Positions 6,481-17,963 of a stretch of 37,666 nt of DNA are shown here, in pieces; positions within the stretch are counted from its first letter, which is position 1; each line of letters begins with the position of its first letter. Under the pieces are notes generated by a model. The model was not told where the DNA came from and ran no database searches. It saw nothing but the letters and a program-made list of their open reading frames with translations. This DNA is from a virus: the UHGV virus genome UHGV-0324630; one strand, 5' to 3'. The translations under genes and the position numbers were made by a program.

Positions 6481-9303
6481 ATGACGGCAGAGTACATCAG
6501 GGACTGGCAACAACCGCGCCACGCAGTGGGGCGTGAAGGAACGGGGATCCCCGCTCCTGAATCTGCGCTTTCCTCCTGGCTGGATGCCTACCGGGCAGAG
6601 AACGAGCGCCGCCAGGAAATGGCTGATGCGGCGTTCTCCGCCACACCGCTGGGCAACCTGATTAATAAAAGCCTGGACGCACAGGAAAAACAGGACAAAG
6701 CCATCACACTGGCAGGAGACGCCAGAAAACAGGCACGCGGCGCGGTGGATGAAGCCATGGCCTCGCTGCGCCTGCTGCCGTCCTATTTGCGCGATCCACT
6801 TATTCGTCACCTCTCCTTCCTGCGCAAAAAACAGGAAGCCGATCGCCGGAAAGGCAAAAAGAGCTGGCAGGCAGAACGCTATGCACGCGGAACCCTGCGC
6901 AAGATATTCGATCGCATAAACCGCACCGACAGCCGCTGGCTGACACCGGGTTATCGCTCCCTTGCCGGACGCGAACGCCTGGACGATTTGCTTTACCTGC
7001 CGCAGCTCAACAAGCACCAGATACAGACGCTGGCTACCATGACGGCGGCGATGTTCAGCAGCACCTTCGAAAAACTCTGCGATGGTTTTGGCGCGACCGA
7101 TGGCGAGCTGACCATGGATGTAACCCTGAAGGCGTATCAGATGCTGGCCCGCATGGCGTTACACCTGCACGCCATGCCTCCACATTATGACGCACTGACA
7201 ACAGACAAAGACCGGAGGAACGAACCGGACACGGAGCTGCTGCCAGGCGCAATCCTTCGCCTGACCTGTGCGGAATGGTGGAAACGCAAACTGTGGCTGT
7301 TACGTTGTGAGTGGCGGGAAGAACAACTTCGCGCCGCCTGTCTGGTTTCCAGAAAAACATCGCCCTATCTGAGCCAGGACGCGTTAAGCGAGTTTCGCGC
7401 ACAGCGCGAGAAAACACGCGATTTCCTGAAAAGTTTCATGCTGGAAAACGAAGACGGGTTCACGATTGATCTCGAGACAGTGTATTACGCGGGAGTAAGT
7501 AACCCGGTTCACCGTAAGGCAGAAATGATGGCCACCATGAAGGGGCTGGAACTTCTGGCCGAAGCCCGTGGCGACAAAGCGGTGTTTCTGACTGTCACCT
7601 GCCCGTCAAAATACCACGCCACAACAGAGAACGGTCATCCGAATCCCAAATGGAACGGGGCCACCATGCGCGACTCCAGCGATTACCTGGTTAACACGTT
7701 TTTTGCGGCGGTCCGCAAGAAACTGAACCGCGACGGCCTGCGCTGGTATGGCATCCGCACGGTGGAGCCTCACCATGACGGCACCGTGCACTGGCATATG
7801 ATGGTCTTTGCTCATCCGGAAGAAATCGACACCATTGTGTCCCACACCCGTGATATTGCCATTCAGGAAGATCGTCACGAGCTGGGTGATGATATTACCC
7901 CACGCTTTAAGGCGGAGTACGTCGACGGCTCAAAAGGCACACCGACCAGCTACATCGCCACCTACATCGGGAAAAACCTGGACAGCCGTGCCGTGGATGG
8001 CATCGACCCGAAAACGGGCAAGCCACGCGTTGACCACGAAACCGGAAAATCAATGGCCGAGAGCGTGGAACGCGCCATCGGCTGGGCGCGCCTTCACCGG
8101 GTCCGCCAGTTCCAGTTTTTTGGTATCCCCTCCCGTCAGGTGTGGCGTGAGCTGCGTCGCCTTGCCAGCCAGATGGCACGCAACCCGGAAGGCCCACAAC
8201 GGCTGAAGGATGACGCAATGGATGCGGTTCTTGCTGCCGCTGATGCCGGATGTTTTGCCACCTACATAGAGAAACAGGGCGGCGTACTTGTTCCACGCAA
8301 GGACTACCTGGTTCGCACCGCCTACGACCTCGCAGATGAACTGAATGATTACGGCGAACAGAGCGTACAGATTTACGGGATCTGGTCACCACTCATCGGG
8401 GAATCCTCTCGTGTGTGCACGCATCCGGATAACTGGAAGCTGGTAAGACGTAAACCGGAAACGGAAGACAGCGCCCGCGAAAATGGTTTTGACCTTCAGG
8501 GCGGCCCTGCCGCCCCTTGGACTCGTGGCAATAACTGTCCCCGTGTACAGGAAACGGACAACAACGGGACAGAACAGCCGGAAGAACGGCCAGCACCGTG
8601 GCCGCAGCTCCCTGACGGCGTTGAAGTGAACGAATGGATGCGCTCACTGAAACGGCACGAACGCCGGGCGCTGATGCGTTCGCTTCGTGACAAACAGGCA
8701 AAAAACAGCAGTGATGAAATGCAGAGCTGGACACAGAGCCGCAAACAGCAGCGGCCTTTGCCTGATAACCACGAATTACTCGCTAAAGAATGGCGGGAGT
8801 CTGCTGAATCTCTCGGCCTGCATATCGGTGAACAACAGATGCAGCACCTGTTACGGGGCGGCAGTCTGTACGTTGACGGCAGCATCATTGCACCGCAGGG
8901 ATTTGAAATTATACGCAAACCGGATACCCGCCCGGACAGCCGAATCACGCAGCTCTGGCAGCGCCTGAGCCGTAATCACGGCGTAAGCAGCACGGAGATC
9001 CGCCATAACCCGGTCGCCAGCTATCTGGCACAGCTGGGGGCATCAGCCCCTGAAGCCGCCGCACGCCTGGCATCCACACTTCAGCAGGACCAGAACACCA
9101 TGAAAACACCCGTTACCGTGCTTTCTGACATGCTGCGCGCCATCCGCGACGCAGAGCACGCACAGAGAATCAGTGAAACCACTGAACGCGCCCGCCGCAA
9201 AGCAGACCTGCTGCGGGGTGGCCTGACCAGTGGAAACAATAAACAGACAGAAACGGGACTCACGAATCCCGTAAATGAGCAAAAAACGCGCAGCGATATA
9301 TGA
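6481..9303 (+). CDS. A: Rolling-circle replication initiation endonuclease (P2 gpA family), with a long C-terminal extension
   Basis: 940-aa ORF; HUH-type motif GTVHWHMMVFAHP and paired-tyrosine motif TSYIATYIGKN typical of P2 A-type Rep proteins. Longer than P2 gpA (about 760 aa by my memory). Confidence 0.9.
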   Translation: MTAEYIRDWQQPRHAVGREGTGIPAPESALSSWLDAYRAENERRQEMADAAFSATPLGNLINKSLDAQEKQDKAITLAGDARKQARGAVDEAMASLRLLPSYLRDPLIRHLSFLRKKQEADRRKGKKSWQAERYARGTLRKIFDRINRTDSRWLTPGYRSLAGRERLDDLLYLPQLNKHQIQTLATMTAAMFSSTFEKLCDGFGATDGELTMDVTLKAYQMLARMALHLHAMPPHYDALTTDKDRRNEPDTELLPGAILRLTCAEWWKRKLWLLRCEWREEQLRAACLVSRKTSPYLSQDALSEFRAQREKTRDFLKSFMLENEDGFTIDLETVYYAGVSNPVHRKAEMMATMKGLELLAEARGDKAVFLTVTCPSKYHATTENGHPNPKWNGATMRDSSDYLVNTFFAAVRKKLNRDGLRWYGIRTVEPHHDGTVHWHMMVFAHPEEIDTIVSHTRDIAIQEDRHELGDDITPRFKAEYVDGSKGTPTSYIATYIGKNLDSRAVDGIDPKTGKPRVDHETGKSMAESVERAIGWARLHRVRQFQFFGIPSRQVWRELRRLASQMARNPEGPQRLKDDAMDAVLAAADAGCFATYIEKQGGVLVPRKDYLVRTAYDLADELNDYGEQSVQIYGIWSPLIGESSRVCTHPDNWKLVRRKPETEDSARENGFDLQGGPAAPWTRGNNCPRVQETDNNGTEQPEERPAPWPQLPDGVEVNEWMRSLKRHERRALMRSLRDKQAKNSSDEMQSWTQSRKQQRPLPDNHELLAKEWRESAESLGLHIGEQQMQHLLRGGSLYVDGSIIAPQGFEIIRKPDTRPDSRITQLWQRLSRNHGVSSTEIRHNPVASYLAQLGASAPEAAARLASTLQQDQNTMKTPVTVLSDMLRAIRDAEHAQRISETTERARRKADLLRGGLTSGNNKQTETGLTNPVNEQKTRSDI

Positions 9304-9379: not shown

Positions 9380-10339
9380 ATGAAAATTTGTATCGACGAC
9401 GGCTCCACCAACATCAAGCTGGCATGGACTGAGAACGGCGAACGCCGCAACGCCATCAGCCCGAACAGCTTCAAGTCGGAATGGTCTGCGCCGTTCGGTG
9501 GCACGCAGCCCGCGAACTACATGCTTGATGGCGTGCGCTATGGTTTTGATCCTGTCAGCGATCGCTTTGTCCAGACGACCGACACGCAATACCAATACAG
9601 CGATGTGAATGTCATTGCCATTCATCACGCGCTGGTCAAATCAGGCATCACGCCACAGGAGGTGGATGTGGTTGTCACCCTGCCACTGAGCGAGTATTTC
9701 GACACAAACGCACAGCCGGACATGGCCAACATCAACCGCAAAAAAGCGAACGTTATGCGCCCGGTGGAGTACCAGAACGGCAAAGCATTCACTATCCGTA
9801 ACGTACGGGTTATGCCTGAATCTATTCCGGCTGGCTTTAAAGCACTGGCTGACATGAGTCCGTTTGAATCCCTGCTGATTGTGGATTTAGGCGGAACCAC
9901 GCTGGATGTGGCAAAGGTTCAGGGACAACTGGCAGGTATCAGCCAGGTGTTTTGCGATCCACACGTAGGCGTTTCCCTGATGGCCGATGCAGTACTGTCG
10001 GTGATGGCCACTAACGGTATGCGTACCAGTCACCACATCGCCAATACCATTATCGAACATCGCCATGATGAAGCTTGGCTGCGCCAGCACATCCACAATG
10101 ACGCGCATTACGCCAGCCTGATGGCGGTTATTCGTGAAAAGGAAGAAACACTGAAACAACGCGTGATCCGCGCGCTGGCGGGTTTTTCGGGTTACGGGCG
10201 GGTGATGGTTGTCGGTGGCGGAGCGGAGATTGTGGCACCCGCTATCCGCGAAGCCTGCGGGGTTAATGCGACTTTCATCGCGGACGGGGTGCCACAGTTT
10301 GCTCTGGTTAATGGGCTGTACGCAATGGACAAGGAGTAA
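9380..10339 (+). CDS. parM: ParM/StbA-family actin-like ATPase (type II partition NTPase)
   Basis: 319-aa ORF; N-terminus MKICIDDGSTNIKLAW...ISPNSFKSEW...YQYSDVNVIAIHHAL and later PESIPAGF, IVDLGGTTLD, FSGY..VMVVGGGAE align closely with my memory of plasmid R1 ParM (MLVFIDDGSTNIKLQW...ISPNSFKREW...). Confidence 0.9.
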   Translation: MKICIDDGSTNIKLAWTENGERRNAISPNSFKSEWSAPFGGTQPANYMLDGVRYGFDPVSDRFVQTTDTQYQYSDVNVIAIHHALVKSGITPQEVDVVVTLPLSEYFDTNAQPDMANINRKKANVMRPVEYQNGKAFTIRNVRVMPESIPAGFKALADMSPFESLLIVDLGGTTLDVAKVQGQLAGISQVFCDPHVGVSLMADAVLSVMATNGMRTSHHIANTIIEHRHDEAWLRQHIHNDAHYASLMAVIREKEETLKQRVIRALAGFSGYGRVMVVGGGAEIVAPAIREACGVNATFIADGVPQFALVNGLYAMDKE

Positions 10340-10343
10340 ACCA

Positions 10344-10655
10344 ATGACGACACCAACCAGACGGATAAGTTTCTATCTGAAGCCCGCCGCCGTCAAGAAC
10401 GAAGGCGAAGCATGCGCCTGGCTGGACAGCCTTACACCAGAAGCCCGTAAAAACGGCCAACGCGTGGCTTTTCTGGCCGGGCTGGCGCTTCTGAAAATGA
10501 ATCCGGCAGAGGCTTACCGACTGGCAGCATGGGCTGACGATGAGGCGTTATCAGTGACACAAACCAGGACAGAACGCCCCCTGTCACAGCCAGTACCAAC
10601 CGCACAGATAACCAGTCAGATGGCCGGAAATATCAGGGCGTTATTTCCTGAATAA
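10344..10655 (+). CDS. parR: ParR-like centromere-binding adaptor (RHH family)
   Basis: 103-aa ORF from ATG 10344 (AAGGAG RBS); RISFYLKPAAVKNEGEACAWLDSLTPEARKNGQRVAFLAGLALLKMNP and C-terminal IRALFPE resemble R1 ParR (IAFKLNPDV...DSIPQGERSRLNRAALTAGLALYRQDP, LRSLFPKE) from memory. The longer track ORF from 10209 overlaps parM and is probably not the true start. Confidence 0.8.
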   Translation: MTTPTRRISFYLKPAAVKNEGEACAWLDSLTPEARKNGQRVAFLAGLALLKMNPAEAYRLAAWADDEALSVTQTRTERPLSQPVPTAQITSQMAGNIRALFPE

Positions 10656-10663
10656 CACAACGT

Positions 10664-10681
10664 CAGGGCGAGTTCGCCCTG
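10664..10681 (+). terminator. Stem-loop (CAGGGCG-agtt-CGCCCTG) just downstream of parR; possible terminator or stabiliser, no U-tract
   Basis: Perfect 7-bp GC-rich stem read directly from the sequence. Confidence 0.3.
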
Positions 10682-10718
10682 ATCTCCATCTCAGAACATA
10701 AACAAGAAGAGCGACTTA

Positions 10719-11102
10719 ATGAGCAAAATCAACTATCAGGCATTACGTGAACGTTATTCACCTGCACCAGTACCAAAATGCCCTATTTGCGGCGAAGAAA
10801 TGTCAATTCAGCGAATATCTGGAGCACAGGTTGTTTATGCCTGCTCCAGTTATGGTGATGATGGAGATTTCAAAGTTGGTCGAACTCTTGTCGACGAACA
10901 TTATGAAAAATCACGCGTAACAGTGTTGGATGTCGGGGCCCCTGAAGTATTGGCGCTACTTGATTGACTGGAAACCAAAGACAACCGAATCACTGAACTG
11001 GAAAAAATCGCCACTGACTATGCACTTAAATTCCAGAAAGCACAGGACGCATTAAAGTACGCCGCTTTGCTGCATAGCAGGACAGCGCAGCTAAAATACT
11101 AA
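10719..11102 (+). pseudogene. Zn-ribbon/coiled-coil small protein interrupted by an in-frame TGA at 10965..10967 (probable TGG to TGA nonsense change); 82-aa product if terminated
   Basis: ORF 10719..10967 (CPICGEEM...YACSS) stops at TGA, but the same frame continues protein-like for 44 more codons (LETKDNRITELEKIATDYALKFQKAQDALKYAALLHSRTAQLKY) to TAA at 11100-11102. Reading TGA as Trp gives a seamless ...LALLDWLETKDN... junction. Confidence 0.4.
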
Positions 11103-11192
11103 CTTAAAGCGGAAGATTAATACATGGTGAGTCGGGGTAATTTGTTTTTATCCCGACAAATAAACAAAAAAGTGGACTATCTCTGTAGTATC

Positions 11193-11723
11193 TTATTCAG
11201 CATCGTCTCGTGCAGTCTGTGCATACGTCACAACAACGCCCAATGCATTAGTTTTCTTTTCAACATAGATAATATTGTCATATTCATAGTTACCATACGG
11301 ATAGCAAATAAGAATATTTTTATGCAGTTCGGGATCATCAACAAACGCTCCGGAACAGCTTCTTGAACTACCAGATGTATACTCATACGGTGCAACATAT
11401 GATGATGTTACTCCTGGTAAAAAATAAGTCACCATCATAAGAGGGATAATCAGGAATATCCCTGTAAGAATGCAAGAGCCAGCATAAACCTTCAGGTATT
11501 CCGACAGTCCTTTCCAGCCACTTTGCTTCACTACCCCCCTCTTCACCAGAAACAAGGAGAAGAAAAAGGACATACCCATACTACACAAGATGTAATAATT
11601 GGATATACGCGAATTAAGATATGTAATCCTGTAGATATCTGCCCTCCACCAGTAAAAGAGGAAAATAATCCCTAGCACTGAAACAGTCATGCAAATCAAA
11701 TAAGGATATGAATCTTTCTTCAT
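11193..11723 (-). CDS. Integral membrane protein (about 4 TM helices plus a C-terminal soluble region), unknown function; AT-rich cargo gene at the position of the P2 tin/old accessory locus
   Basis: 176-aa ORF; hydrophobic segments LICMTVSVLGIIFLFYWW, YILCSMGMSFFFSLFLV, VYAGSCILTGIFLIIPLMMVTYFL; markedly AT-rich relative to the phage backbone. Confidence 0.65.
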   Translation of the reverse strand: MKKDSYPYLICMTVSVLGIIFLFYWWRADIYRITYLNSRISNYYILCSMGMSFFFSLFLVKRGVVKQSGWKGLSEYLKVYAGSCILTGIFLIIPLMMVTYFLPGVTSSYVAPYEYTSGSSRSCSGAFVDDPELHKNILICYPYGNYEYDNIIYVEKKTNALGVVVTYAQTARDDAE

Positions 11724-11795
11724 GTCTTGCGCTCATTAAAATTTCCCTGCTACGAACAAATTTACCATCCGTTTTTTGCGCAGAAAACAGCACGA

Positions 11796-11828
11796 TGCAC
11801 ACTGCACGATAGTGCACAAATTTGCACA
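11796..11828. repeat. Four helically phased TGCAC(A) repeats in the non-coding region between the cargo gene and portal gene (probable cos/packaging region)
   Basis: TGCAC at 11796, 11803, 11813, 11823, with a fifth at 11895; flanked by TTTTYTGCGC motifs at about 11773 and 11913. Confidence 0.3.
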
Positions 11829-12253
11829 ATTTTTTTGAACGACTTTTTACCCTTCCGCCCCGCATGGCGGCTGGATCCGTCAAGGATCCGTGCGTGCACA
11901 AAAAAAAGCGTTTTTTCTGCGCGCAGGTGACGGGGGAACAGCCCGCGTTTCAGGGGGTAAATAGCATTCCCTGAGCGATGTCGCAGCGACACAACAGAAT
12001 GGCTGTATTTCTCACGCTGAGCGTGAAAAAGACGTGAGGGCTTTTGATTTGATGGGGTAACAGATAAGGCCGCCAAAATCGCACTGAGGCGGCAGGAACA
12101 TGCAGTCAACGCGGTGGGATTGCGTAAGAGTCTGACCGTCGATGATGGCAATAAGCTGGAAGGCGTCGTGAAATTATCTGATTGATACAGGAGCTGGAGA
12201 GTCGGGGCATAAATTTTTTATGCCCCGGCGAAGCAGCAGACAAGCGAAGCGCG

Positions 12254-13300
12254 TCAGGCTGTGGGCTGAGTGTCTAACAGTGCGTAAGGGTTAAAGCGGA
12301 TCACCTCTTCGCCCAGCCAGTCATTGATGTGCTTCATGGCCTCCATGACGGGCATCAGCTCATTAATTGCGTAAACCCGCGCGGCCTTCTCCACATCACC
12401 AAACGCACTTTTTTCGCCCGGCATCGCCCCCATCAGTTGCGGTGGAACGCGGTGCGCAGCCAGCACATCATCACGGGATGCCGCCTTAACATTCATGAAC
12501 TCATCCTTTGCGGTGATCTGCTGGAACGGCAAAATTTGCACCCCTTCTTTGCCCCCGTTGGGCGCATGAATGAGCACGTTTTTAAACGCACCACCACCAC
12601 GTGCCCCCTGTAGCGTTTCTTTCAGTGAGTCCATGCTTTCGCGGTTTACCTGCGCTGCACCGATGTAGATGATGCACCCGGCGTGGGAGCCGTTGTCGTA
12701 GTACAGTTTTCTGAACATGTCCGCCGAATGAGACAGGCTGGCCGAGAGTAATGCACCAAGATATTCCGGCATGCCGTAGATTTCCTGGTTAATATCCGGA
12801 TTCATCAGGTGGCACACTTTGCCAGGGCGAAACTGAAACGCGTCCTTACCATCCTGCACATACCACCATGATTCAAGATCGCTTCCGCGTCGCATGTATT
12901 TCGCCAGGGCGTGCCGTAATTTAAGCGGTTCGCCGAGCATATTGCTTCGAAGCTCAAGGAATGCGTTACCGAACACAAACCAGTCCAGCGCCAGCGCCGA
13001 GAAATCCTGCCGGGAAAGCAGCGGGTGCGGGATGTAGCAACCGAGTAATACATTGCGCTTAAAGTAAAGCGCAGATTGATGCCAGGACGTTTGCCGGGCA
13101 GCTCTTGCCAGACCGTACCAGTCCACCGGGGTTTCATACCACCGCCCGTTATCAGCACAGTACATATTGTCCAGCAGGTCATGCCCGGTCAGGCGGTAAG
13201 GACCATCAAATGTGAATGCACTGAGCGATGATTCTTTCCTGAGCGCATCAGCGAGATCAATGCGTGAACTCATGCGCACTTTTTTATTTTTTCTGCTCAT
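12254..13300 (-). CDS. Q: Portal protein (P2 gpQ-like, PBSX-type portal family)
   Basis: 348-aa ORF directly downstream of and overlapping (TGATG) the large terminase gene on the minus strand; size and position match P2 Q. Confidence 0.88.
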   Translation of the reverse strand: MSRKNKKVRMSSRIDLADALRKESSLSAFTFDGPYRLTGHDLLDNMYCADNGRWYETPVDWYGLARAARQTSWHQSALYFKRNVLLGCYIPHPLLSRQDFSALALDWFVFGNAFLELRSNMLGEPLKLRHALAKYMRRGSDLESWWYVQDGKDAFQFRPGKVCHLMNPDINQEIYGMPEYLGALLSASLSHSADMFRKLYYDNGSHAGCIIYIGAAQVNRESMDSLKETLQGARGGGAFKNVLIHAPNGGKEGVQILPFQQITAKDEFMNVKAASRDDVLAAHRVPPQLMGAMPGEKSAFGDVEKAARVYAINELMPVMEAMKHINDWLGEEVIRFNPYALLDTQPTA

Positions 13301-15051
13301 CAGAACTCCATAACCGTGAAACGCTCGTTTTCTCCTTCGCCGCCAATCGGTTCGTTAATGACAGCAAGCATGGTTGCCCACGCAAGGTCGCCGTGGCTAA
13401 TCCCCCTCGCGCGGTCCGTTTCGTAAGTGATAAAGCCGCCCGGTGTTTTCACCTTACGCACGGCGTTAAAGGCCGCGACCAGCTCGCGTTCGGCGCGATC
13501 GTATTCCCACCGCCCGGCACGCATTATTTGCAGCATTTTCAGTACCAGCGACCGTTTTGATGACAGCGTGAAGGTGTACGGAATAGCTGCAGGGAAAAAC
13601 CGTTTCACTATCTGATAAACAGCCTCCCCGTTCCCGCCCGTCACATCAATGCCGATGTGTTCCACGTTGTAGCGATACGTGAACTCTTCAATGACTCTGG
13701 CCTGTTCTTCAAACTCCAGCCCCTGAACGCGTCGCGTCTCCACCGTTCGAAAACGGCCACCAGGAACAGCCGGAGGAACCACCACGGACACTGCACCGCT
13801 GTCGCCGTTTCCACTGCTGCCGTTTGCGTCATACCCAATCCATACCGGACGATTCCCCATCGGGCGGGGAGCAAAAGGTTTCCAGTCTTTCCAGTCGTCG
13901 TATCCGTCAACACCGCAGCCAATCAGGATATTCAGGTTAAATGCCGATTCCCCTTCGCGAACAAACTCACACATATAGAGATTGAGGAACTCGTCTTCGG
14001 TGTTTTCATCACGGATTTCGTCAATATCGGTGTGTTTCCAGCCGTGATTAACCACATCTTCCAGCGTGACAATTTGCCGCCACGTCCGGTCAGGGCAGAT
14101 AAGCCCGTTATGCAGCGTTTTCCAGTCCACAGAAAAACGCTGGCGTTTATGCGAGGCCTTTTTCTCGTTCCAGCGGTCGCCGTTCCAGTAGGCGTATGCC
14201 TCGTGCGTTTCGGTGGATGGCGTGGAGAAGTAGGTGCGCCGCAGTCCGCTGAGGGTTGCCATAGCGCCAGCCACCTTGCGCAGTTCAGCAAAGCGACTGA
14301 CCCAGAAAAATTCATCAAAATAAAAATTGCCCGTATAGGACTGTGCCGACGCAGCAGAAGTGCCGAGAAAATGCAGCTCTGCGCCGTTGGAGAGGATGAT
14401 TTTATCGCCCCCTTTCAGCTCCACATCAACTTCAGCCGCGGCCTTCTGAATAATGCTTTTAAACTGGAACGCCTGACGACGCGACGCAGACAAAAAAATC
14501 TGGTTACGCTGGTAAGGTTGCGCCACATCGTCACGCAGCGCCATCAGCAGTGCTTCCTGTGCAAAATACCAGGTCGCCCCAATCTGTCGGGATTTCAGGA
14601 TCATCCTGTTACGTATCCCGGCTTCCCTGCAAAGAGTCAGGGAGTCAAACCAGCCCCGCTGATGCCACTCCAGCCTGCTGATGATTTTTTCCCGCAGTGC
14701 GGCAATCTGTTCCGGCGTGAAATGATTTTTAAGTTTTTTCGCCCGGCCTTTCTTTCCTGTGGCCGTCGCATCCGGCTGGCCATCATGCATTTTTTTAAGC
14801 TGCCGGGTCAGCAGGTCTATTTCCTTGAAGTCACCACCTGTTTTATTCTGTTTTTCAGTAAGCTGGATGAGGCGCGCATCGATGGACTGCGTGACACGCT
14901 GCACGGGTGGCGTTTCATCCCACTGGTCGCGTTTTTTCCACGCATAAATCGTGTTCGGGTTTATTCCCATCAGACGTGAGATTTCTGCGGGCGGATAACC
15001 CTGCCAGTAAAGTTGCCGCGCACGCTGGCGCACAAAAGCGTCCTGAATCAT
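13300..15051 (-). CDS. P: Terminase large (ATPase) subunit, P2 gpP-like
   Basis: 583-aa ORF; N-terminal HTH-like segment (RARQLYWQGYPPAEISRLMGINPNTIYAWKKR) followed by an ATPase/nuclease-sized body; divergent from the scaffold/capsid operon as in P2. Confidence 0.9.
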   Translation of the reverse strand: MIQDAFVRQRARQLYWQGYPPAEISRLMGINPNTIYAWKKRDQWDETPPVQRVTQSIDARLIQLTEKQNKTGGDFKEIDLLTRQLKKMHDGQPDATATGKKGRAKKLKNHFTPEQIAALREKIISRLEWHQRGWFDSLTLCREAGIRNRMILKSRQIGATWYFAQEALLMALRDDVAQPYQRNQIFLSASRRQAFQFKSIIQKAAAEVDVELKGGDKIILSNGAELHFLGTSAASAQSYTGNFYFDEFFWVSRFAELRKVAGAMATLSGLRRTYFSTPSTETHEAYAYWNGDRWNEKKASHKRQRFSVDWKTLHNGLICPDRTWRQIVTLEDVVNHGWKHTDIDEIRDENTEDEFLNLYMCEFVREGESAFNLNILIGCGVDGYDDWKDWKPFAPRPMGNRPVWIGYDANGSSGNGDSGAVSVVVPPAVPGGRFRTVETRRVQGLEFEEQARVIEEFTYRYNVEHIGIDVTGGNGEAVYQIVKRFFPAAIPYTFTLSSKRSLVLKMLQIMRAGRWEYDRAERELVAAFNAVRKVKTPGGFITYETDRARGISHGDLAWATMLAVINEPIGGEGENERFTVMEF

Positions 15052-17162: not shown

Positions 17163-17963
17163 ATGATTACTCCTGCACAGCAACACTGGCAGAACGTGAT
17201 GGCACAGCGCGCAGGCCGGGCGAATGAAGGCGTGGACCACGCCGCGCGTACCGCGCATGAAGAGGTGCTGTATCGTCTGCGTCTGGCACAGGCCCGGCTT
17301 AAGGGCGTACAGGCCAGAAGCGCGAAAGCCGCCATCAAAAAAGAGTTGTTGCCGGACTTTTCCGGCTGGATTGAGGGAACGCTGGAGGCTGACGGCGGGC
17401 AGCAGGACGAAGTGATTGCCACGCTGATGGTGTGGGCGATTGACTGCGGCGATCTTCCGCTTGCGCTGCGTATTGGCGCGTATGTGGTCCGTCACAACCT
17501 CATCATGCCGGATAACTTTGGCCGTACTGCTGCCACAGTGCTGACCGAAGAAATCTGCAACCCGGTACTGACGCAGGCCGGGACGGATGCCGACGCGGAT
17601 TTGTCCGCCTTTATCGAACCACTGGATACCCTCCGGGAGATTGTCACCGACCAGGACATGCCGGACGAAGTGCGCGCCAAATTATGCAAGGCGTGCGCCT
17701 TTGCCCGCCGTGGCCTGAGCGATGCGGACAGCATGGCCCTGTCACTGAAGCTGCTGCGCGAAGCAATGCACCTGAACCCGAACGCAGGTGTGAAACGCGA
17801 GATTGCAACCCTTTCCCGCGCCCTGAAAAAAGCCGATTCCGCAGCCGCACCAGAAGATGCCAGCACACCGCAGGCGCAGGACGAAAGCAGCAAAAGTAAA
17901 AAGACAACGCGGAAGCCTGCAACACGAAAAACCACCGCGACGCAGAAGGCGAAGCGCGGTTAA
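17163..17963 (+). CDS. M: Terminase small (endonuclease) subunit, P2 gpM-like
   Basis: 266-aa ORF following the capsid gene, with a basic C-terminal tail; position and size match gpM. Confidence 0.85.
   Translation: MITPAQQHWQNVMAQRAGRANEGVDHAARTAHEEVLYRLRLAQARLKGVQARSAKAAIKKELLPDFSGWIEGTLEADGGQQDEVIATLMVWAIDCGDLPLALRIGAYVVRHNLIMPDNFGRTAATVLTEEICNPVLTQAGTDADADLSAFIEPLDTLREIVTDQDMPDEVRAKLCKACAFARRGLSDADSMALSLKLLREAMHLNPNAGVKREIATLSRALKKADSAAAPEDASTPQAQDESSKSKKTTRKPATRKTTATQKAKRG

Follow-up and report, generated by a model that had tools for sequence, protein, structure and literature searches.

The locus considered here raises the question of where a P2-like prophage keeps the signal at which its DNA is cut for packaging, and how much of the non-coding DNA beside its portal gene belongs to that signal. 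The virus genome UHGV-0324630 was analysed as a single stretch of 37,666 nucleotides, which is referred to as the window throughout. It contains a non-coding stretch bounded by a 176-aa open reading frame on the minus strand and by the portal stop at 12254, and a sequence-only reading had interpreted this stretch as a probable cos or packaging region without placing the cut. As judged from its sequence, the window is a P88-like prophage of the P2 family: a region of 601 bases around the stretch is 92-95% identical to Escherichia phage P88, P88_4B11, Citrobacter phiSM and their relatives, and prophages of three complete E. coli genomes, including those of strains 631, E5 and FCI1, match it at 100% over 11700-12300. 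P88_4B11 belongs to the genus Xuanwuvirus of the Peduoviridae. The published P88-like genomes (P88, KP063541; P88_4B11, LR595891; phiSM, OR565851; 520873; and 500465-2) are 92-95% identical to the window over 11803-12300, and a cos feature is annotated in this stretch in none of these five records, which show there only hypothetical proteins or nothing. A literature search likewise returned no paper on the cos of P88 or of Xuanwuvirus. The genes surrounding the stretch are the following.

6481 to 9303: replication gene A (gpA)
9380 to 11802: cargo
11193 to 11723, minus strand: cargo open reading frame of 176 aa
12254 to 13300, minus strand: portal gene (Pfam Phage_portal)
13300 to 15051, minus strand: large terminase gene (TerL, gpP type; Pfam Terminase_5, 6N and 6C, i.e., PF06056, PF03237 and PF17289)
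17163 to 17963, plus strand: small terminase gene (gpM homologue; PF05944, E = 6e-37)

The scaffold and capsid genes are encoded on the plus strand. The order of gpA, cargo, the core described below, portal and TerL is the same as in P2 and 186, with the portal and TerL genes on the minus strand and transcribed towards the core. The large terminase shares 44% identity with P2 gpP and contains a well-conserved N-terminal helix-turn-helix (residues 6-63, Pfam Terminase_5), and the small terminase shares 36% identity with P2 gpM. Within and around the non-coding stretch, no plus-strand open reading frame of at least 40 aa occurs between 11974 and 12329, no Rfam match with an E value of 1 or less was obtained for 11650-12330, and no sigma-70 promoter-like site was detected at the scan threshold.

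We conclude, with a probability of roughly 80%, that positions 11803-11949 (147 bp) represent the functional core of this stretch and the cos site of the P88-like, P2-family prophage, laid out as in P2, 186 and P4 and cut at about 11926-11944; that this core is a cos at all we regard as close to certain. Its elements are listed here from left to right.

11803-11807, 11813-11817 and 11823-11827, plus strand: R1, R2 and R3, three copies of TGCAC at 10-bp spacing, at the left edge of the core
11828 to 11894, no strand: spacer of fixed length and variable sequence
11830-11836: T7 run in the spacer
11844-11854: TTTTTACCCTT in the spacer, moderately conserved in several lineages
11855-11874: spacer dyad CCGCCC-N8-GGCTGG
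11873-11880 and 11884-11891: direct repeat GGATCCGT (GGATCCG) in the spacer, specific to the P88 lineage
11891 to 11925, no strand: dyad TGCGTGCACAAAAAA / TTTTTTCTGCGCGCA with the palindrome CTGCGCGCAG, arms 87% complementary, abutting the predicted nick
11895 to 11907, plus strand: R4, the fourth TGCAC with an A-run, where the counterpart of the P2/P4 '55-bp core' begins
11926 to 11944, plus strand: predicted 19-nt cohesive end GGTGACGGGGGAACAGCCC, assigned by position, orientation and conservation
11945 to 11949, no strand: right edge of the core, about 5 nt past the predicted cohesive end

The core was defined against several hundred related loci in which the DNA varies on both sides, and an alignment covered at least 120 IMG/VR loci carrying the GGATCCG repeat. 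Among the loci listed, the left edge falls exactly on 11803, the T of TGCAC, in at least 20 unrelated left-flank contexts (74 by a looser count); this flank corresponds to the cos-proximal cargo hotspot of P2-like phages (Rousset et al., PMC9122126). At the other end, two relatives whose portals are 78% and 70% identical (L055 and L088, respectively) diverge from the window just past ...CAGCCCGC and ...GGGGGAACAGCCCGC, at about 11949, and do not align again until close to the hairpin beside the portal gene. The DNA at 11950-12195 is, on the basis of these alignments, lineage-specific and replaceable. The two edges at 11803 and about 11949 therefore delimit the functional core as 11803-11949. 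This core was found in 1148 of 5426 complete E. coli genomes. A 16-mer scan of genome contigs yielded nearly exclusively chance matches in GC-rich genomes, and its only true homologues came from Serratia (L165) and Symbiopectobacterium (L158). The most conserved parts of the core across the lineages, which include Escherichia, Citrobacter, Enterobacter, Klebsiella, Serratia and a satellite element, are R4 and the block of the 19-mer, and TGCAC plus AAAA of R4 is almost invariant in the non-redundant set; note that this invariance arises partly by construction in the genome-contig scan, an IMG/VR scan and the non-redundant set, because the block around the 19-mer served there as the search anchor. 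The comparison of the satellite, phiT5282H and AMSCJX04, together with a further comparison, is independent of this anchor.

A view on the cos sites of P2, 186 and P4, obtained by joining the ends of their records and using the annotated 19-nt cohesive ends as reference, reveals a common order of elements. A TGCAT triplet lies about 100-124 nt before the nick and is followed by an unconserved spacer and a fourth TGCAT, after which come TAAAA, a dyad, the 19-mer and 7 further conserved nt; the sequence TGCATTAAAA is located 29 bp before the known nick in P2, P4 and 186. Over the 55 bp that lead from R4 to cos+7, P2 and P4 agree at 53 positions, and their conservation stops 7 nt past the 19-mer. 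The published cos core of P2 and P4 is given as 55 bp as well (Ziermann and Calendar, 1990, in the passages of PMC3931495, PMC5694545 and PMC9122126 that cite it), and its counterpart in the window is 11895-11951 (57 bp). Aligned in this way, the core and the cos sites of P2, 186 and P4, which are known from experiment, are collinear, so that the comparison with P2, 186 and relatives that had been suggested along with the sequence-only reading bears out its cos assignment.

The likeness extends to the placement of the site, with the cargo hotspot or gpA on one side and the portal 3' end on the other, to a hairpin or terminator that follows the portal stop, and to the succession of a TGCAY triplet, a 72-bp spacer, TGCAY plus an A-run, a dyad and a 19-mer, a candidate one in the window, of the form GGYGA...GGGG..A..GC.C. 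It further includes a conserved tail of 5-7 nt, terminases of the gpP/gpM type and the sharing of the site with a satellite. The differences are found in the details. The repeat core reads TGCAC here and TGCAT in P2, 186 and P4; R1 and R2 are spaced by 10 bp instead of 12-13 bp; R4 is separated from the GGYGA of the 19-mer by 31 bp instead of the 29 bp of P2-type phages such as P2, 186 and P4; and the dyad before the nick consists of A/T-tracts plus CTGCGCGCAG rather than the CCGCCC-N8-GGGCGG of P2 and 186. Moreover, the portal stop is 309 nt away, compared to 167 nt in P2, the terminases are only 36-44% identical to those of P2, and the cohesive ends are predicted here, whereas those of the P2 type are experimentally known. 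The cos site of the window is thus a diverged member of the known P2-family cos sites, which is unannotated in the public records of the genus.

Further evidence comes from an element which contains the core in an entirely different genetic setting. The weakest full-length match in E. coli, with 78% identity over all 147 bp, is located inside a P4-like element of about 10 kb. The genes of this satellite (loci L129 and L257) comprise Icd-like, toprim primase, integrase and ogr/Delta genes, along with a toxin-antitoxin pair and a P2-family capsid gene of its own, and it lacks portal and terminase genes. The same satellite resides at a different chromosomal site in another strain (two sites altogether), and its type of core occurs in about 56 genomes. 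Since a satellite devoid of portal and terminase genes keeps the whole block from R1 to the 19-mer, it represents independent evidence that this block is a packaging signal. P4 itself is known to share only the cos region with P2 (PMC9122126). The core is shared with P4-like satellites, which would putatively depend on the terminase of a helper. One further locus without a portal match (L094) was considered as a satellite and rejected, because its sequence is retained as far as the hairpin and the portal 3' end, of which the first bases are still present; it is a deleted prophage.

The repeats that had first drawn attention to the stretch were all found as described, with TGCAC on the plus strand at 11796, 11803, 11813, 11823 and 11895. 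Neither four TGCAC within 32 nt nor three at an exact spacing of 10 nt arose in any of 1000 mononucleotide shuffles of the window, in which TGCAC is even under-represented (82 copies compared to 119 expected). The proposal that the region serves as cos and that phased TGCAC repeats are part of it is upheld for the copies at 11803, 11813, 11823 and 11895, which are conserved in diverged relatives and in the satellite and appear as TGCAT in P2, 186 and P4. R1 to R3 occur at fixed offsets in the satellite, phiT5282H, AMSCJX04, Serratia and Symbiopectobacterium, and TGCAT triplets are present at the equivalent place in P2, P4, 186, RCIP0057, ENT4 and 613R3. The distance from R3 to R4 amounts to exactly 72 bp in the window, the satellite, Enterobacter phiT5282H, the AMSCJX04 prophage, Serratia and Symbiopectobacterium, and it is again exactly 72 bp in P2, P4, 186, RCIP0057, ENT4 and 613R3. 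Of 51 non-redundant relatives with R4 and the A-run, 33 have R3 placed 72 nt upstream and 7 have it at 71 nt (either value in 40 of the 51). Despite this constant length of 72 bp, the spacer sequences cannot be aligned between the lineages; the triplet and the 72-bp geometry are kept from P2, 186 and P4 to the P88-like phages while the spacer drifts. The direct repeat of GGATCCG illustrates this: it is present as the sequence-only reading described it, but its inclusion in cos does not hold, as it is confined to the P88 lineage, lies in the unconserved spacer and is missing in the satellite, phiT5282H and the other lineages. The dyad at 11891-11925, folded as a single strand, reaches -16.2 kcal/mol (z = -3.2).

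Within the core, the cohesive end is probably located at 11926-11944, as far as can be judged from sequence comparison. GGTGACGGGGGAACAGCCC agrees with P2 cos GGCGAGGCGGGGAAAGCAC at 13 of 19 positions without gaps and differs at the remaining 6, which is the best score in the region and occurs in the same orientation relative to the portal gene. Matches of 13/19 are reached at 10 sites in the window on both strands, and this match alone is not significant; the assignment therefore rests on position, orientation and conservation. The 19-mer starts 31 nt after R4 in P88-type sequences (43/51), and R1 precedes the 19-mer by 123 nt in P88-type and P2-type sites alike. In the AMSCJX04 lineage the sequence is GGTGACGGGGGGAAAGCCC, which by hand count agrees with P2 at 15 and with the window at 17 of the 19 positions; by sequence, it links the P2 form to that of the window. 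The nicks would accordingly be expected between about 11925 and 11926 on the top strand and between about 11944 and 11945 on the bottom strand, with an uncertainty of about 2 nt.

The ends of database sequences were compared with this placement. Two whole metagenome contigs, out of 95 metagenome loci, end at 11904 and 11918, i.e., 21 and 7 nt short of 11925, which lends weak support to the predicted nick, and no phage record or viral contig starting at GGTGACGG was present among the matches listed. The pile-up of contig ends as a proxy for virion ends (IMG/VR searches with GGATCCGTCAAGGATCCG, GCGCAGGTGACGGGGG, GGTGACGGGGGRMMAGCCC and CGTTTCAGGGGGTAAATAGC, at least 120 loci each) turned out to be uninformative: the IMG/VR matches listed are mostly prophages from isolate genomes, with locus ends scattered over 11801, 11818, 11865, 11882, 11901 and other positions. 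Two other placements of the cohesive end were discarded. The resemblance to the P2 cohesive end that the sequence-only reading had weakly seen at 12082..12103 stays below 11/19 without gaps and lies in DNA that is replaced where the portals are 70-78% identical. A cos at about 11873-11891, on the GGATCCG repeats, had resulted from an alignment that anchored the P2 TGCGCGC on CTGCGCGC (11917) and the P2 CCGCCCCG dyad on 11856, and it was rejected because this segment is unconserved outside the P88 lineage, whereas the collinearity anchored on R4 fits all lineages.

A more serious alternative accepts the region as cos and sets the cohesive end near 11848 (TACCCTTCCGCCCCGCATG or the adjoining T-rich stretch), between R3 and R4, such that the TGCAY triplet would lie on one side of the cut and R4 with the GGTGACGGGGG block would provide binding sites on the other, as in the cosQ/cosN/cosB arrangement of lambda. 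It derives from the GenBank record of P88_4B11 (LR595891), a linear record opened seamlessly between 11847 and 11848, 78 nt to the left of the predicted nick. Among the sister records of the same project, P24E6b, P24B2 and P24A7b open at cos position 1, P24C9 at position 20 and Lambda_2B8 inside lambda cosN, and P22H1 opens 10-27 nt from the ends with Nextera adapters retained. Since these records open at or near a true cos, the opening of LR595891 is unlikely to be random; by chance, a 37-kb genome would be opened this close to cos (80 nt or less) in about 0.4% of cases. The moderate conservation of TTTTTACCCTT near 11848 in several lineages also fits a cut at this place. However, no other part of the core varies as much among the P88-like loci listed as 11848-11870. 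This segment is unrelated in AMSCJX04 and missing from P2-type phages; at the nick position known for P2, a counterpart exists for 11926-11944 but not for this segment, and the 95 metagenome loci include none with a start or end close to 11848. For an assembly graph with k = 77, k+1 is exactly the offset of 78 nt, and one may speculate that the opening is an artefact representing a graph vertex at the physical right end. Altogether, we regard a cut near 11848 as unlikely, and 11926-11944 remains the preferred site of the cohesive end.

Even less probable is a mainly transcriptional role of the TGCAC triplet, either as a weak terminator or insulator between the cargo hotspot and cos, formed by a GTGCA-N6-TGCAC hairpin and the T7 run, or as a set of operators for a cargo promoter. 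A consensus scan indeed scores GTGCACAAATTTGCAC plus AATTTTTTTG as terminator-like on the plus strand, the T-run is conserved in P88-type cores, the P2 triplet and the region preceding the start of the old-tin transcript overlap, and 186 has an annotated terminator upstream of its repeats; yet the R2/R3 hairpin is weak (-6.1 kcal/mol, z = -1.7, with 14 of 200 shuffles folding as well), the P2-type triplets have no T-run and other neighbours but the same distances to R4 and the nick, the satellite retains the triplet next to unrelated flanking genes, and the fixed 72-bp distance to R4 would be left unexplained. The relation of the repeats to the cargo can be read from the phages that carry the same cargo gene, for which the features outside the core are needed.

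11724 to 11802, minus strand: upstream region of the cargo gene at 11193 to 11723, outside cos
11771-11788: palindrome GTTTTTTGCGCAGAAAAC (with TTTTTTGCGC at 11772), formed by the TTTTYTGCGC copies at 11772 (plus) and 11778 (minus)
12203-12213 and 12217-12227, minus strand: perfect 11-bp hairpin CGGGGCATAAA-ttt-TTTATGCCCCG, 26 nt downstream of the portal stop

The segment 11724-11802 is absent from most P88-like relatives among the loci listed, which carry other cargo there. The sequence at 11650-11850 matches the lambdoid phages 434 and Lambda_2B8, in which it lies upstream of a counter-oriented gene for a 'putative membrane protein', and this gene of 434 is homologous to the minus-strand open reading frame at 11193-11723. 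Phage 434 retains a remnant of the cos core, in which mutations have altered two of the three TGCAC repeats and a deletion has removed the 83 nt corresponding to 11855-11937, and its cargo gene survives without a working cos; the degradation of the repeats and the deletion of 83 nt of the core therefore imply that the cargo gene does not need the repeats, which also speaks against the transcriptional role. The TGCAC repeats are kept only where a P2-type terminase is present.

About half of the motifs listed in the sequence-only reading belong to modules other than cos. The TGCAC at 11796 exists but drops out of cos, because it lies in the variable cargo shared with phage 434, and from the sequence comparison both this copy and the palindrome at 11771-11788 are assigned to the cargo module. 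The motif TTTTYTGCGC, of which the window contains 4 copies compared to 0.53 expected, is found at 11772 and 11778 (plus and minus strand, respectively) and at 11913 (plus strand), so that the two elements reported at about 11773 and 11913 are real, at 11772 and 11913; their pairing as a feature of cos is nevertheless a coincidence of two modules. The perfect hairpin by the portal stop was confirmed as well, although not at 12208..12230 but about 4-5 nt further left, at 12203-12227. As RNA, it folds with -22.2 kcal/mol (z = -5.7), and it is conserved even where its flanks diverge (L055 and L088); no U-tract follows it on either strand. Contrary to its earlier inclusion in the packaging region, it follows the portal stop in the same way as P2 tQ, and it is probably a terminator or a 3'-end stabiliser of the terminase-portal transcript outside cos. 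P2 tQ and 186 tW are annotated terminators a few nt past the portal stop; P2 tQ is located 5 nt from the stop and has a T-run, whereas the hairpin here is 26 nt away and has no U-tract.

The arrangement of the core suggests how it may be used. The small (gpM) and large (gpP) terminase subunits would bind to the R sites, and the fixed spacing of 72 bp, equivalent to about 7 helical turns, would let the DNA loop or wrap and thereby place the nuclease over the 19-mer. Staggered nicks on both strands about 30 bp after R4 would then generate 19-nt 5' cohesive ends at approximately the positions predicted above, and satellites copying the whole block would be packaged too. That the small subunit reads TGCAY, as the sequence-only reading had suggested, is a reasonable inference, but the motif could equally well be read by the large subunit through its N-terminal helix-turn-helix.

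Some features of this scheme recall the cos of lambda with its cosQ-cosN-cosB order, gpNu1 R sites and IHF bend, namely short repeats at a helically meaningful spacing beside a staggered nick, and a site open to copying by satellites or pirate elements. The parallel concerns the mechanism alone: there is no relation in sequence, the small terminase is of the PF05944 family and not of the Nu1 type, the overhang is 12 nt in lambda and a predicted 19 nt here, and the repeats lie away from the side of the portal and large terminase genes, opposite to lambda. The features that characterize a lambda-type cos, namely a 12-nt cosN together with gpNu1 R sites and IHF binding on the side of the terminase genes, are not shared by this core, and no IHF site was identified here.

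More tentatively, the cos sites of enterobacterial P2-family phages and their satellites might be bipartite as a rule, with the TGCAY triplet held exactly 72 bp from the fourth site and 29-31 bp between the latter and the nick. Terminase would then form a looped or wrapped complex with the DNA, and the '55-bp core' would be only half of the recognition signal. If this reading is true, it may be the large subunit, through its N-terminal helix-turn-helix, and not the small subunit that reads the sites. The geometry of triplet, 72-bp spacer and fourth site may in any case be under-described.

The element is an ordinary and expected part of a P2-family phage, which is placed more precisely here. 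P88-like prophages are present in about one fifth of the complete E. coli genomes and have been left without a cos annotation; the core at 11803-11949 and the predicted cut site at 11926-11944 would provide a genome start for the genus and a fixed edge of the defence and cargo hotspot. The core may further be employed as a sequence signature for satellites exploiting P88-like phages, one family of which, with its own capsid gene, has been found. Finally, the strict 72-bp spacing common to P2, 186 and P4 would offer a handle on DNA recognition by P2-type terminases, which is much less understood than that of lambda.

The large terminase carries an N-terminal helix-turn-helix domain, recognized as PF06056 (Terminase_5) and also as HTH_23, which is well conserved between this protein and P2 gpP, the large terminase subunit of P2. 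The TGCAY sites of the cos region may be read by the small subunit, but this domain is a candidate reader too.

Window 13300-15051, minus strand: large terminase, with the helix-turn-helix at residues 6-63

Turning to the ends of deposited phage records, Nextera transposase adapter sequence has been left at both ends of the GenBank record LR595870 (P2_2H1), the genome part of which begins at cos position 10 and ends about 27 nt before the right end. The P88_4B11 record (LR595891; L001:1 and L002:3001) opens at window 11847|11848, exactly 78 nt to the left of the predicted nick, and 78 equals k+1 for k = 77. This opening is an assembly artefact linked to the physical end, or else it indicates that the real end lies elsewhere.

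L255:1-31 and the last 22 nt of L256: adapter-bearing ends of LR595870

A second, small site of cargo insertion lies on the portal side of cos: in 18 of the 120 IMG/VR relatives among the matches listed, the cos core is separated from the portal gene by about 630 bp of additional DNA. In the window, the 245 bp from cos to the hairpin (11950-12195) are specific to the P88 lineage and show no Rfam match; relatives are annotated with a 42-aa ORF in the equivalent stretch, the start codon of which is missing from the window. The cargo hotspot next to cos contains no recognisable defence system in the window; in its place are a complete gene of the ParM/StbA type (actin-like, for plasmid segregation; Pfam E = 4e-82) and a fragment resembling Ead/Ea22.

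Equivalent of window ~12098-12250: ~630-bp insertion in L011, L026 and 16 other IMG/VR loci
Window 12005-12033: 14-nt inverted repeat within 11950-12195
Window 9380-10339 and 10719-10967: hotspot genes (Pfam)

The P88-type cos core is also present in a P4-like satellite family, represented by two loci, which has a gene for a "P2 family major capsid protein" of its own as well as genes for a PemK/MazF toxin-antitoxin pair, and which contains neither portal nor terminase genes. The satellite-type core occurs at an identity of at least 90% in about 56 complete E. coli genomes. A second cos core is absent from all three satellite-bearing genomes checked, which therefore lack a resident P88-like helper.

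L129:1-9700: satellite of E. coli M15 (NZ_CP185789 4377167-4386900)
L257:250-10650: satellite of ETEC1748

The counter-oriented cargo gene of the window, which codes for a 176-aa product annotated as membrane protein and without Pfam match, is common to the lambdoid phages 434 and Lambda_2B8.

Window 11193-11850: cargo gene and cos edge; in phage 434, L003:990-1700 (OL657226 27086-27862)

Both phages also contain a dead remnant of a P88-type cos, in which 83 nt (corresponding to window 11855-11937) are deleted. The shared cargo gene together with this remnant provides evidence that P2-family and lambdoid phages have exchanged cargo, with the cos edge being dragged along.
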